From Enterobacteria phage vB_EcoM_IME341: a DNA stretch of 64,000 bases. Positions 4,855-42,246 of the stretch are shown piece after piece (within the stretch, counting starts at the first letter, position 1; the number at the start of each line of letters is the position of its first letter). Made by a program: the position numbers and the translations under genes. The stretch lies in sequence record MH051917; one strand, written 5' to 3'. Under the pieces are notes generated by a model, which saw only the letters and a list, made by a program, of their open reading frames with translations, did not search any database and was not told the origin of the DNA.

Positions 4855-4906
4855 GTATACATCTCCATTAGACATGATATTATAGACCTATCAACTAATG
4901 GAGATG
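4855..4906 (+). promoter_or_regulatory. early promoter embedded in stem-loop (PeSL-type)
   Basis: GTATAC 4855-4860, TATTAT 4878-4883; perfect 11-bp inverted repeat catctccatta (4860-4870) / taatggagatg (4896-4906). Confidence 0.55.
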
Positions 4907-23921: not shown

Positions 23922-24204
23922 TTTTGATGGAGCGGTTAATACCGCTTCCGAACCTGTCCATGTATTGGTAAACAAACAACAGAATGGCCTTGATATTGAG
24001 GCCTTTGTTGAGGCTGAAGGTTGTAGTTACCTCGAAGCGGCTACCGCATGGTTGGAAGAGAACAGCATCCCTGAAGGTAACTTTGCTCGTTATTTGCCTG
24101 CAGGAATTATTGATAAAATTATGAACGAAGCTATTGATGATAACTTGCTTCGACCTTCAATGGCTCGAACGCAAAAGACTAATACCCTGGATTTCTTGTT
24201 ATGA
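23902..24204 (+). CDS. 33: gp33 late transcription co-activator
   Basis: C-terminal SYLEA..A.LEENSIPE..FA...P.GII.KI..EAID.NLLRPS..R..KTNTLDFLL matches recalled T4 gp33. Confidence 0.85.
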   Translation: MTQSLNDFDGAVNTASEPVHVLVNKQQNGLDIEAFVEAEGCSYLEAATAWLEENSIPEGNFARYLPAGIIDKIMNEAIDDNLLRPSMARTQKTNTLDFLL

Positions 24205-24854
24205 TTAAGATTCGCATGCCACCAAACAATAACCGTATGGTGAATGGTAAGAGCGTATATTCACTATACTTAATGCTCAAACATCACTTCAATGCCAAAT
24301 ACGACGTTATAAAATATAACTGGGTCATGCGAATCTCTGATACGGCTTATCAAAAACGTCGTGACAAATATTTCTTTGAGAAATTGAGTGATAAATACAC
24401 TTTGAAAGAGCTTGCTCTTATCTTCATGAGTAACTTGGTGGCTAACCAAGACGCATGGATTGGCGACATCAGTGATGCTGACGCCTTAGTCTTTTACCGA
24501 GAATATATCGGTAGACTTAAAAGAATAAAACAAGTTTTTGAGGATGATATCAAAAACATTTATTATTTTAGTAAGAAAGTGGAAGTTCAAGCGCTTTCTG
24601 AAATTTTTGATTATAATAAAAAAGTTAACTCGAGCTATATTTTTAAGCTCCTTCAATCGAATGTGATTTCATTCGAAACGTTTATTTTGCTTGATTCATT
24701 TATGGACATAATAAATAAACATGATGAACAGACCAATGATTTAGTGTGGTCTAAGTATTCGACTAAATTAAATGCTTATAAGAAAATTCTTATAATCGAT
24801 AATTTAGAAGCTCGTAAATTGTTCATTGAAACTATCAAATCTTGTAAGTTTTAA
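24201..24854 (+). CDS. 59: gp59 helicase loader
   Basis: 217 aa; GKSVY.LYLM.K.H.N.KYDVIKYNW.MR.SD.AYQKRRDKYFF matches recalled T4 gp59. Confidence 0.9.
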   Translation: MIKIRMPPNNNRMVNGKSVYSLYLMLKHHFNAKYDVIKYNWVMRISDTAYQKRRDKYFFEKLSDKYTLKELALIFMSNLVANQDAWIGDISDADALVFYREYIGRLKRIKQVFEDDIKNIYYFSKKVEVQALSEIFDYNKKVNSSYIFKLLQSNVISFETFILLDSFMDIINKHDEQTNDLVWSKYSTKLNAYKKILIIDNLEARKLFIETIKSCKF

Positions 24855-24879
24855 TGCTTCAAACCAACTGTGTTAATAT
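24853..24879 (+). promoter_or_regulatory. MotA-dependent middle promoter for gene 32
   Basis: MotA box aaTGCTTcA (24853-24861), 12-nt gap, -10 TAATAT (24874-24879). Confidence 0.5.
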
Positions 24880-24943
24880 ACTAACTCAATCTGTTAAAAA
24901 CTGTTAATAAAATACAACTGCTAAATCTGCTAAGGTAAATAAA
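24880..24943 (+). promoter_or_regulatory. gene 32 translational operator (autoregulatory leader)
   Basis: A/U-rich leader with repeated ctgttaa / ctgctaa elements upstream of gp32 ATG, as in the T4 gp32 leader. Confidence 0.5.
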
Positions 24944-25849
24944 ATGTTTAAACGTAAAGACCCTTCCCAACTGGCTGCTCAACTGTCTGCAATGAAAGGT
25001 GGTTCTTCTTTCTCTTCCGATGATAAAGCTGAATGGAAATTGAAAGATGACAACGGTGTCGGTACTGCGGTAATTCGTTTCCTACCTTCGAAAAACGAAG
25101 AAAATCCATCTCCATTCATTAAGCTCGTTAACCACGGCTTCAAGAAAAATGGTCAATGGTACATTGAGAACTGTACGTCTACTCACGGTGATTTCGATTC
25201 ATGTCCTGTATGTAAATACATGAACCAGAATGATACCTTTAATACTAATAATGCCGAATACAAACTGATGAAACGTAAAACTTCCTTCTGGGCTAACATC
25301 CTTGTTATTAAGGATAGTGCAGTGCCTGCTAACGAAGGTAAAGTGTTTAAATTCCGTTTCGGTCAGAAAATTATGGATAAAATCAACCAGATGGTTGAAG
25401 TTGATACCGATATTGGTGAAGTGCCAGTTGACGTAACATGTCCGTTTGATGGTGCGAACTTCGTACTGAAATCTAAGAAAGTTGGCGACTTCAAGAACTA
25501 CGACGATTCCAAATTCATGGGTCAGTCTGAAATTCCTAACATCAATGATGAAGCTTACCAAGCTAAATTGATGGAAGAAATGCACGACCTTTCTAAACTG
25601 CTCGATTTCAAATCATTCGAAACTAACGAAGCTAAGTTTAAGAAAGTTGTTGGTACAGCTGCTCTTGGTGGTGCTGCCGCTAAAGCTTCTGCAGCCGCTG
25701 ATAAGATTGGTGATGACCTGGACGCATTCAGTGCAGACCTTGATGCATATGATTCCAAACCGTCTACACCAACTCGTTCCACTACTCCTGAGCCGTCAGT
25801 AAGTCCTTCTGATGACGATGGTTTGGACGACCTGTTAGCTGGTCTATAA
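24944..25849 (+). CDS. 32: gp32 single-stranded DNA-binding protein
   Basis: 301 aa as in T4; [38 protein letters not shown] zinc-binding core and acidic C-terminus. Confidence 0.95.
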
Positions 25850-25865
25850 GTTATTGATTTATAAT

Positions 25866-25891
25866 GGGAAGACTTCGGTCTTCCCTTTTTG
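25866..25891 (+). terminator. rho-independent terminator after gene 32
   Basis: gggaagac-ttcg-gtcttccc hairpin followed by T5. Confidence 0.75.
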
Positions 25892-25901
25892 GCATTTAAT
25901 G

Positions 25902-25930
25902 GTTTACAACTCCTTTAAACATGATACTAT
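25902..25930 (+). promoter_or_regulatory. T4-type early promoter
   Basis: GTTTAC 25902-25907, TACTAT 25925-25930, spacer 17. Confidence 0.6.
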
Positions 25931-25959
25931 AGACCTATCAACTACATGAGGAAATAAAA

Positions 25960-26340
25960 ATGGAAATCGGTAAAAAATACGAACTTCGCCCTGAGCGTAT
26001 CAAAGCTTTTATTAATATTAGCCCTATCAATAATAACGATATGGTGGACATTATCCAAAACAATGGCGGTTGGTTTGAAGTGAAGGATACGATGACCTCG
26101 GATGGGGATAAATTTGTAACTAAAATCAAATGTGCAAATGGCGAGATTTTTAGTGATGATGGGTTACTAGAGAAATATTTTGAATTGCACGAAGATGAGT
26201 TCTATTGCTTCCGTGAATATTCTGAACAAGACGAAGTTGAACCTGTTACTAAGGCGGGCGTGACTCAAATCCATTGCATTGTCACCGAACAGAACGTTGA
26301 TCAAATCATTGAACTTTTGCAAAAAACTTTTAAGGCCTAA
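25960..26340 (+). CDS. hypothetical protein (paralog A of 26951..27325)
   Basis: 126 aa; shares EYFEL.E.EF..F.E and C-terminal pattern with the ORF at 26951. Confidence 0.5.
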   Translation: MEIGKKYELRPERIKAFINISPINNNDMVDIIQNNGGWFEVKDTMTSDGDKFVTKIKCANGEIFSDDGLLEKYFELHEDEFYCFREYSEQDEVEPVTKAGVTQIHCIVTEQNVDQIIELLQKTFKA

Positions 26341-26341
26341 T

Positions 26342-26602
26342 ATGACTAAAGATGATTTCCTGGATGCAGTAGAAAAAGCCAGTGAGAAATTTGAAGTGAT
26401 GGGTGTACGAGTTCATAAAGATAGAAATTATGGGCTTGATGTCCAAACGTATTCGTTATGGCTTGTAGGTGAACATAGTCTTGTAACCACTTTAGTTATG
26501 GGTGTTGATGCACAACCTTTACTAGTTAAATTCAGAAGTATGGAAAAAGCTACCAAAGAAATGATTAAACTTGGTAAATGGCTTGATAAAATTAAAAAAT
26601 AG
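26342..26602 (+). CDS. hypothetical protein
   Basis: ATG 26342 right after previous stop. Confidence 0.4.
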   Translation: MTKDDFLDAVEKASEKFEVMGVRVHKDRNYGLDVQTYSLWLVGEHSLVTTLVMGVDAQPLLVKFRSMEKATKEMIKLGKWLDKIKK

Positions 26603-26603
26603 T

Positions 26604-26638
26604 GTTTACAAGGTCTGTAGATATGATACTATAGACCT
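26604..26638 (+). promoter_or_regulatory. early promoter in stem-loop
   Basis: GTTTAC 26604-26609, TACTAT 26627-26632; stem aggtct (26611-26616) / agacct (26633-26638). Confidence 0.6.
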
Positions 26639-26664
26639 ATCAACTAATGAGTGAGGAAAATAAA

Positions 26665-26892
26665 ATGGCTAAGGTTAATATTGATATCGTTGATTTTGAA
26701 TACACTTATGAAGTTATCCGTAACCGTTATCCTTCTTTGAGTATGGCTTACATTAAAGATACTCAATTCTTTAGTATTCAAATTGAAGTCCAGGGTCCTC
26801 TTGAAGACCTTACCCGCTTTATGGCTGATGAGTATTGTGACGGTATGCATGCTGAAGACGCTGAATTTTATATGGGCTTAATTCGAGCGTAG
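26665..26892 (+). CDS. hypothetical protein
   Basis: ATG 26665 after SD gagtgaggaaaa. Confidence 0.4.
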
Positions 26893-26927
26893 TATACAAA
26901 CCAACGGGAACATGATAATATGTTCCC
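26892..26927 (+). promoter_or_regulatory. early promoter with -10 in hairpin loop
   Basis: GTATAC 26892-26897; perfect 8-bp stem gggaacat (26906-26913) / atgttccc (26920-26927) around a 6-nt loop gataat (26914-26919). Confidence 0.5.
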
Positions 26928-26950
26928 TCAACAAAAATGAGGAAATTAAA

Positions 26951-27325
26951 ATGGAAACTGGTAAATTTTACGTATTAGACCCTGCTGCTAAAAAACAATT
27001 CATAGCTGGTAGTCCTGATGATAATTATAATTCATGCATGGTCAAGTTGATGGAACAACACGGCAATTCCTTCAAAGTCCTGGATATGAGTTATATTGAA
27101 GGTGATTATTTTGTTGAAAAAGTTGAAATGAAAGATGGCACTATCCTGAATAGTATGGGTGGGCCTGATGAGTACTTTGAACTCGCTGAATGGGAATTCT
27201 GTCACTTCCTGGAAGTTGATGGCGATGCCCCTGATATTGATACCCAAACCATTCATGTACAAGTCAATCACAAAAATGCCGCTGAAGTCATTGCCCTGAT
27301 TAAAGCAACTTTTGATATTCAGTAA
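26951..27325 (+). CDS. hypothetical protein (paralog B of 25960..26340)
   Basis: ATG 26951 after SD aatgaggaaatt; 124 aa. Confidence 0.5.
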   Translation: METGKFYVLDPAAKKQFIAGSPDDNYNSCMVKLMEQHGNSFKVLDMSYIEGDYFVEKVEMKDGTILNSMGGPDEYFELAEWEFCHFLEVDGDAPDIDTQTIHVQVNHKNAAEVIALIKATFDIQ

Positions 27326-27331
27326 AAAGTA

Positions 27332-27361
27332 GTGTACACCCAAATGGGGCTATGATATAAT
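27332..27361 (+). promoter_or_regulatory. T4-type early promoter
   Basis: GTGTAC 27332-27337, TATAAT 27356-27361, spacer 18. Confidence 0.55.
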
Positions 27362-27403
27362 GGTCCCATACTGAGTTAACAACTAAAACAAGCGGAGAAT
27401 AAA

Positions 27404-27652
27404 ATGAAATTACAACGTGAATCAATCAAAGATTCTGAAGTTAAAGGCAAATGGTACTTCACAATCCAAGGTAACAATCCGGAAGCTCTGGAAAAAGCTG
27501 AACAAGCTTTGTGTGAAATGGGTTGGAAAGATGAGTGTGACGGTTGTCCTCTTTATGAAGATGGTAGCTCATCTGGTTTCTGGATTCACCACTCTGATGT
27601 TGACCAATTTAAAGCTGACTGGAAAGTCGTTAAGGCAAATAAAAATGCATGA
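27404..27652 (+). CDS. hypothetical protein
   Basis: 82-aa ORF, SD gcggagaat. Confidence 0.45.
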   Translation: MKLQRESIKDSEVKGKWYFTIQGNNPEALEKAEQALCEMGWKDECDGCPLYEDGSSSGFWIHHSDVDQFKADWKVVKANKNA

Positions 27653-27835
27653 TTTATTTTTCCGCTTTTTAAGAACATGTCTTTCTGAAACAGAAAAGGA
27701 ACAGTATTCATTCCTTTCCTCTGGATGTTCCGCGGTGCGTTTGAATGAGTGTCCTAAACGTCAGATTTGGGTAATTGATTCCAAAATGTTTGAATTTCAA
27801 TATTATATGGTTAAAAAATATTTGAGGAAAATATA

Positions 27836-27836
<1 letters not shown>
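27645..27836 (+). CDS. hypothetical protein
   Basis: ATG 27645 overlapping previous stop; 63 aa. Confidence 0.3.
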
Positions 27837-28945
<1,109 letters not shown>

Positions 28946-28958
<13 letters not shown>

Positions 28959-42217: not shown

Positions 42218-42246
42218 GTGTACATCTCCGGTAGGCATGATACTAT
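42218..42246 (+). promoter_or_regulatory. T4-type early promoter (cassette copy 1)
   Basis: GTGTAC 42218-42223, TACTAT 42241-42246, spacer 17. Confidence 0.6.

Follow-up and report, generated by a model that had tools for sequence, protein, structure and literature searches.

Frd.2 of phage T4 shares an N-terminal 'LSm-like' barrel with GoF and MotB.1 (Kim et al. 2025, PMC12152347). An amber mutation in frd.2 leaves the plating of T4 normal, with an EOP of about 1 (PMC12152347), and in a genome-wide knock-down screen with dCas13d (CRISPRi-ART, PMC11879866) frd.2 was the sole T4 gene of unknown function to be called 'Fit', at a marginal score of 0.83 (p = 0.027; gene 32 scored 3.29). In the literature on frd.2/Frd2 we found no functional study beyond these two reports and one further cited paper. 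The second described system with which the present locus invites comparison is the PeSL (promoter-early stem-loop), a conserved promoter/stem-loop cassette that serves as a recombination point in the hyperplastic regions of T4-like phages and whose T-even early-promoter consensus is TTTACW-N17-TAYWAT (Comeau et al. 2014, PMC4122927). Earlier, T4-like phages had been described as undergoing modular shuffling mediated by such cassettes (Arbiol et al. 2010, PMC2839356).

A pair of frd.2 genes is likewise known already: its members are annotated as frd.2a and frd.2b in JS98 and JS10, Pfam has an entry for the family, and publications describe the fold family (2025) and shuffling by cassettes (2010 and 2014). 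Here we analysed such a pair, termed copies A and B, in a window of 64,000 nucleotides from Enterobacteria phage vB_EcoM_IME341 (MH051917); the study of Kim et al. (2025, PMC12152347) covers the single Frd.2 of T4, whereas two copies are present here. What our analysis adds is incremental, namely the two-clade structure of the genes, a 509-bp cassette carrying B, an exchange between genera, and the acidity of the proteins. We think it probable that A and B are anciently diverged Frd.2 paralogues, functional early genes for barrel-containing accessory factors, which are carried in promoter cassettes shuffled by recombination.

The frd.2 pair between gene 32 and frd

The window derives from a Dhakavirus (a JS98/IME08-like T4-type phage), and the 24 kb surrounding the locus shows 95% identity to Escherichia phage IME08 and 90-92% to the other Dhakavirus genomes JS98, JS10, dhabil and dhaeg. 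The whole gene block lies on the + strand. Gene 59 (24201-24854) and gene 32, encoding gp32 (24944-25849), are followed by copy A (25960-26340), a T4-type Frd.2 of 126 aa with a pI of 4.55 that falls into the A clade of the gene tree described below. A basic, o232-like ORF of 86 aa (26342-26602; phrog_4423) starts 1 nt past the stop codon of A (TAATATG), and because of this spacing the two are probably translationally coupled. Then come frd.3 (Pfam Phage_FRD3), which begins at 26647 or, more likely, at 26665 and ends at 26892, and copy B (26951-27325; 124 aa, pI 4.36), the divergent Frd.2 paralogue and equivalent of JS98 frd.2a. Copy B occupies the position that frd.2 has in T4, i.e., between frd.3 and frd.1. 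The module directly downstream of the B cassette is frd.1 (27404-27652; DUF5417), followed by a 113-aa ORF (27836-28177), frd (28174-28755) and then td. Both frd.2 ORFs, stop codons included, were found exactly where the initial annotation had placed them. One GenBank record labels a homologue of o228, a small gene of this block, as PemK/MazF, and we found no sequence support here for that label.

The two genes had first been proposed as paralogues on the basis of a conserved core. In a pairwise BLASTP alignment, A and B match end to end (35% identity and 54% positives over 127 columns, E = 8e-19); the similarity is significant, hence they are paralogues. It is not confined to the C-terminal core, but extends over the full length from Met1 (ME.GK.Y.L.P...K.FI...), and the motif string originally quoted for the core turned out to consist mostly of residues of B (DGT, GG, DEY and VI.LI are absent from A). 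The motif YFEL.E.EF..F.E is invariant, and each clade has its own set of conserved residues.

Membership of both copies in Pfam PF03197 (FRD2) is clear, with 130 bits (5.5e-38) for A and 113.4 bits (8.5e-33) for B at a curated gathering threshold of 29 bits, and both match phrog_622 over its full length (1.3e-39 and 1.1e-32, respectively). They also have the size and site of the family (about 120-130 aa, encoded between gene 32 and frd in T4-type phages), likenesses in which they agree with Frd.2 of T4. Identity to the JS98 genes is 88% for copy A (with frd.2b) and 88.6% for copy B (with frd.2a). When the family profile was run against the 597 ORFs of at least 40 aa in the window, no third FRD2 paralogue was found. 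Judging by such searches, the FRD2 family is narrow: among 1.84 billion representative proteins the profile had 51 matches at the level of 50%-identity representatives, about 40 of them small phage-type proteins of 85-140 aa. Large proteins matched in several stretches were rejected as repeat artefacts, which fits the two that were checked, one with RTX repeats and one with SH3b repeats.

Two clades of Frd.2 genes

Copy A shares 65% identity with the one Frd.2 of T4/RB32 and 88-93% with the frd.2b-type gene of other Dhakaviruses; copy B shares 34% with T4 Frd.2 and 96.7% with the copy in Gaprivervirus TH44. In a neighbour-joining tree, the 26 Frd.2 genes of 15 loci split into an A clade, including the gene of T4-like RB32, the A' copies of Gaprivervirus and S16-like phages and the A copies of Dhakavirus, and a B clade, including the B copies of Dhakavirus and Gaprivervirus (which are intermixed), the gene of VR7 and the B' copy of S16-like phages. 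Both copies of Mosigvirus ATK47 are placed on the B side, close to its base. On sequence, A is the orthologue of T4 Frd.2 and B a representative of a second, old clade. The distribution across T-even genomes, a check that the initial annotation had called for, was obtained by mapping A and B types across the relatives; both clades are present in Dhakavirus, Gaprivervirus and S16-like phages, i.e., in at least three genera. A B-type gene (at least 60% identity) occurs in roughly 65 of about 890 phage records that bear FRD2, and two FRD2 places were seen in about 70-80 of these records.

Both copies are functional genes under purifying selection: comparison with the orthologues in eight other genomes for each copy gave dN/dS of 0.09-0.25 for copy A and 0.09-0.36 for copy B, and dS reached 1.8 in these comparisons. 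Between A and B, dS is 1.36 (saturated) and dN is 0.63, and the duplication is therefore old. The initial interpretation of the genes as paralogous and early, each with its own promoter, in a hyperplastic 32-frd block can be upheld, and so can the term 'duplicated' in the sense of two paralogues, but not in the sense of a recent event: a recent tandem duplication in this phage is ruled out by the saturated dS and by clades that span several genera. Ongoing gene conversion between A and B was also ruled out, as no DNA repeat is common to the two genes.

These figures bear equally on the idea that one of the duplicates is redundant or in decay, or that the similarity or the ORFs themselves arose by chance. 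Such a redundancy might be suspected because T4 frd.2 is dispensable under laboratory conditions and the closest relatives of this phage lack B. However, both copies are intact in many genomes, with dN/dS of 0.09-0.36 at dS up to 1.8, the clades have conserved residues of their own, and the scores for homology are high (the BLASTP E-value of A against B; 113-130 bits in Pfam FRD2). Decay of one copy and chance similarity are refuted by that E-value, the Pfam scores and purifying selection, and we regard the idea as a whole as extremely improbable.

Promoter cassettes and gene order

An early promoter had been assigned to each of the two genes by the initial annotation, and both assignments hold. 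P1 (25902-25930) consists of a -35 element and an extended -10 (GTTTACA-N13-TGATACTAT; 9/12 sigma-70 match) and serves copy A and the o232-like ORF, which form a candidate transcription unit; P2 (26892-26921; GTATACA-N14-TGATAATAT) lies upstream of copy B. Two more promoters are P3 for frd.3 (26604-26632), with the same motif as P1, and P4 for frd.1 (27332-27361; GTGTACA-N14-TGATATAAT), and all four are on the + strand. A generic sigma-70 scan lists P1, P3 and P4 at 9-10 of 12; P2, with a match of 8/12, is under the listing threshold of the scan, yet it has an extended -10 and belongs to the same motif class. The motif TACA-N13-14-TGATANNAT occurs six times in the 64 kb, against 0.24 expected, always on the + strand, and four of these occurrences are within 25905-27361. 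There are, in sum, four early-promoter cassettes of one type inside 1.5 kb, with the -10 in a hairpin in three of them, and all modules have a common RBS/start sequence, ATGAGGAAAT(A/T)AAAATGGAA.

Folding bore out four hairpins, one being the intrinsic terminator of gene 32 (25866-25885, + strand; GGGAAGAC-UUCG-GUCUUCCC followed by U5) and the others those at P3, P2 and P4. In the hairpin at P2 (26906-26927; 8-9 bp), the 6-nt loop and the 3' arm hold the -10 (TAATAT, 26916-26921), so that the earlier observation of a -10 in a hairpin at the promoter of copy B is correct. Hairpins of 10 bp lie over the -10 at P3 (26611-26638) and at P4 (27344-27369). P1 has no hairpin over its -10 and begins 17 nt past the gene-32 terminator hairpin. 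Since the internal hairpins at P2, P3 and P4 are without a U tract and overlap the -10, their activity as terminators is doubtful. An Rfam scan of 24700-28300 gave nothing credible, and the hairpins do not correspond to a described RNA family.

A 43-nt direct repeat (25902-25944 and 26604-26646; 86% identity, 702 bp apart), of which the left copy is P1 and the right copy P3, flanks copy A and the o232-like ORF. Such repeats would permit the excision of A and o232 as a mini-circle of the PeSL type.

Gene orders were derived by tblastn of the window proteins onto 14 fetched loci. The order in the window (32 / A o232 / frd.3 / B / frd.1) is also that of LQ5 and 04086, and Gaprivervirus (TH44, MN01, EAWsc9 and VR20) has the same dispersed arrangement save for the position of o232 (32 / A' / frd.3 / B o232 / frd.1). 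In JS98, by contrast, B, A and o232 form a tandem operon right after gene 32 (32 / B A o232 / frd.3 / frd.1, an order also found in dhaeg), whereas in the window A-o232 and B are dispersed and have their own promoters. Copy B is missing from dhabil and IME08 (32 / A o232 / frd.3 / frd.1) and copy A from VR7 (32 / B o232 / frd.3 / frd.1); the remaining orders are frd.3 / B' A' in the S16-like contig, 32 / B'' A'' / frd.1 in ATK47, and 32 / frd.3 / frd.2 / frd.1 in the T4-like RB32. In VR20, the A' copy is split over two frames and B is intact.

A near-identical cassette made up of the gene-32 terminator and P1 lies upstream of A in the window and upstream of B in JS98 and dhaeg; it is conserved in dhabil and LQ5 as well, and P2 is preserved upstream of B in LQ5, 04086, TH44 and MN01. 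A 509-bp segment (26885-27393, + strand; breakpoints from blastn) that is missing from IME08 and dhabil corresponds exactly to P2, B and P4, and the ends of this indel relative to the closest relatives thus fall in promoter cassettes. Over the block frd.3-B-frd.1-o228, DNA identity to Gaprivervirus reaches 88-94%, as against no more than 66-73% for the core genes gp32, frd and td on its flanks, a difference which indicates that the small-gene block has been exchanged between Dhakavirus and Gaprivervirus.

With the published PeSL, the cassettes have in common a sigma-70-type early promoter that fits the T-even consensus, a stem-loop, and a small ORF whose start codon follows a Shine-Dalgarno sequence, as well as their clustering in a hyperplastic region and their location at indel edges between close relatives. 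The canonical layout, with the stem-loop followed by the promoter, is found here solely in the gene-32 terminator and P1; the other three of the four cassettes differ in having the stem-loop over the spacer and the -10 rather than upstream of the -35, and in lacking a U tract. As a whole, the locus appears to match the published model of modular shuffling by PeSL. Each gene would be carried in its own cassette of sigma-70 early promoter, Shine-Dalgarno sequence and ORF, and homologous recombination between near-identical promoter/RBS cassettes may move, add or remove Frd.2 modules in Dhakavirus and Gaprivervirus.

A further reading goes beyond shuffling and holds that A and B are not redundant: either B is a factor for host-specific counter-defence or host takeover that spreads horizontally, with A keeping the ancestral role, or the two form a hetero-oligomeric barrel complex; we deem it decidedly unlikely. 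According to the first version, B would travel between T4-type genera on promoter-bounded cassettes and A would be inherited vertically; copy B is 97% identical to a Gaprivervirus copy in a genome whose gp32 is 72% identical. Scans of all six small proteins of the block with PADLOC and NCBIfam gave no match, and for A, B and their neighbours no catalogued defence-related family was matched in PADLOC, NCBIfam or PDB sequences. Neither these results nor the published data on T4 frd.2 lend support to, or speak against, the host-takeover or anti-defence role that the initial annotation had suggested for such duplicated early genes. For the second version, a natural tandem fusion (see below) provides a hint.

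Predicted fold and candidate roles

AlphaFold2 models of A and B, built on an alignment of 41 sequences, are very similar (pLDDT 86.5 for A and 88.4 for B). From the N-terminus, the models run through beta1, a pair of helices, a long beta hairpin and a short strand to a short helix and strand with the YFEL motif, followed in the C-terminal part by a low-confidence acidic linker and a segment that ends in a confident helix (strands 6-9, 38-47, 50-58, 63-65 and 84-86; low-confidence linker 91-97; helix 113-124). As modelled, each protein is an N-terminal five-stranded SH3/LSm-like beta-barrel with a two-helix insert, an acidic disordered linker, and a C-terminal strand and helix.

A Foldseek search of BFVD with copy B retrieved other Frd.2 proteins, GoF of VR7 (E = 9.2e-6) and MotB.1 of T4 (P39415; E = 1.4e-3). 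Dozens of further matches were uncharacterised proteins, and many of these came from T4-like phages. In hhalign, the family profile was colinear with T4 GoF over 117 columns (E = 0.009), at a probability of just 4.4%, which is low because the template was a single sequence, and the match to MotB.1 was weak (E = 0.069). [quoted passage not shown] (2025) had concluded.

Foldseek searches of the PDB with both models gave no match below E = 0.2. The top-ranked weak neighbours were SH3-like barrels, among them the Tudor domain of UvrD/PcrA, FeoA, other domains of the chromo and Tudor type, and a single LSm domain, with the LSm domain of EDC3 at E = 2.1. The C-terminal Tudor domain of UvrD/PcrA, which binds the RNA polymerase beta lobe, and FeoA had E-values of at least 0.23 and no sequence similarity, and their barrels have no counterpart of the two-helix insert or of the C-terminal strand and helix. 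When the family profile was run against the sequences of solved structures, only chance matches came up (the best at 0.027, to a kinase).

[quoted passage not shown] (2025). The match to the fold family of GoF and MotB.1 and the EDC3 LSm domain among the weak PDB matches are consistent with it, as is the stabilisation by GoF(D25Y) of a reporter RNA with the gene 41 5' region (PMC12152347). However, RNA-related activity in the GoF family has been demonstrated solely for this gain-of-function mutant; wild-type GoF and MotB.1 were without effect in the reporter assay, which left out Frd.2 (PMC12152347), AlphaFold3 gave the relatives no confident hexamer, and no significant match to Hfq or Sm proteins was obtained with Foldseek against the PDB. 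Moreover, A (net charge -11), B (net charge -14) and the whole FRD2 family (pI 4.05-5.6, median 4.38) are strongly acidic, unlike Hfq-type RNA binders. We consider the RNA-chaperone explanation rather unlikely and, because of the net charges of both proteins, favour with low confidence a role of A and B as protein-binding adaptors or decoys over direct RNA binding. Acidity speaks against RNA binding only indirectly.

The barrels also raise the question of whether A and B are retained together because they are partners in an obligate hetero-oligomer, such as a pseudo-dimeric or a ring-shaped barrel. The two co-occur in three or four genera, GoF and MotB.1 run partly as dimers (PMC12152347), BFVD contains longer barrel-containing relatives, and a metagenomic protein of 254 aa (P0100) resembles two FRD2 N-terminal domains in tandem fusion, although its second domain matches weakly (8.4 bits). 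On the other hand, A stands alone in T4, RB32, dhabil and IME08 and B alone in VR7, the split A' of VR20 is accompanied by an intact B, and in the window the two genes belong to separate transcription units. Since each type is also found alone, we judge an obligate complex of A and B to be very unlikely.

Under the explanation that we prefer, with A and B as old paralogues in shuffled early-promoter cassettes, host RNA polymerase would transcribe both genes immediately after infection. Their products would be non-essential accessory factors, whose barrel may bind a host or phage macromolecule, and the two paralogues may have diverged in the specificity for their partners.

The pair is an ordinary, catalogued feature of these phages, and the overall picture is unchanged by our analysis. 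It belongs to a fold family that is restricted to phages (PMC12152347). What can be added is that many relatives of T4 hold two long-diverged versions of Frd.2, each kept by selection, and that the B version seems to move between genera on small cassettes, which may aid the design of experiments.

Probable exchange of the small early gene block

The segment at 26597-28179, which carries frd.3, copy B (the second-clade Frd.2 paralogue, 26951-27325), frd.1 and the o228-like ORF, is 88-94% identical at the DNA level to Gaprivervirus phages, whereas gp32, frd and td, the core genes on either side of the small early block, reach just 66-73%. This difference between the segment and its adjoining genes points to a putative swap of the block between genera. 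The o228-like ORF (113 aa; 27836-28177) has a homologue that the EAWsc9 GenBank record names 'type II toxin-antitoxin system PemK/MazF family toxin'; Pfam, NCBIfam and PDB sequence searches gave no support for the PemK/MazF identity. The ORF is wholly missing from LQ5 and IME08, and in the window it is separated from frd.1 by a 183-nt gap (27653-27835) without a convincing ORF, where the annotation of JS98 has an overlapping orf229. Further downstream, a 68-aa ORF (28752-28958) spans the frd/td junction and overlaps the ends of both genes. It is found at 98.5% identity in the Dhakavirus phages JS98, dhabil and dhaeg but not in the examined Gaprivervirus loci, and showed no match to any family.

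Start codon of frd.3 and further promoter motifs

Two start sites can be considered for frd.3 (26647-26667): a candidate at 26647 (ATGAGT), and an alternative at 26665 (ATGGCT), which has GAGGAAAATAAA just before it and is the start used in the JS98 annotation. The Shine-Dalgarno spacing common to the genes of the block fits the start at 26665. The early-promoter motif TACA-N13-TGATA(T/C)TAT has two more exact matches on the + strand of the window, at 4858-4883 and 42221-42246; these sites probably represent the same type of cassette (early promoter, Shine-Dalgarno and small ORF) in other hyperplastic regions.

Frd.2 copies and the ORF behind them

In Gaprivervirus VR20 the A-type (T4-type) Frd.2 copy (locus L008, 2786-3146) is broken across two reading frames and annotated as a truncated 264-nt ORF, unlike the B copy of this phage, which is intact; the A-type copy is probably a pseudogene or the product of a sequencing error. 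A metagenomic protein of 254 aa (P0100) appears to consist of two N-terminal barrels of the type of FRD2, the Pfam family of Frd.2, fused in tandem, with a single C-terminal strand-helix after them. Its second repeat is a weak match, via the motif YF.L.E.E..YF.EV.

In the window (26342-26602), as in JS98 and dhabil, the 86-aa basic ORF (phrog_4423; pI 8.9) comes after copy A, the T4-type Frd.2 gene (25960-26340); in TH44, MN01 and VR7 it comes after copy B. In every case its start codon lies 1-4 nt beyond the stop codon of the Frd.2-family gene, whichever paralogue ends the module. This arrangement suggests that the two genes are translationally coupled or that the phrog_4423 product is functionally paired with the Frd.2 proteins.
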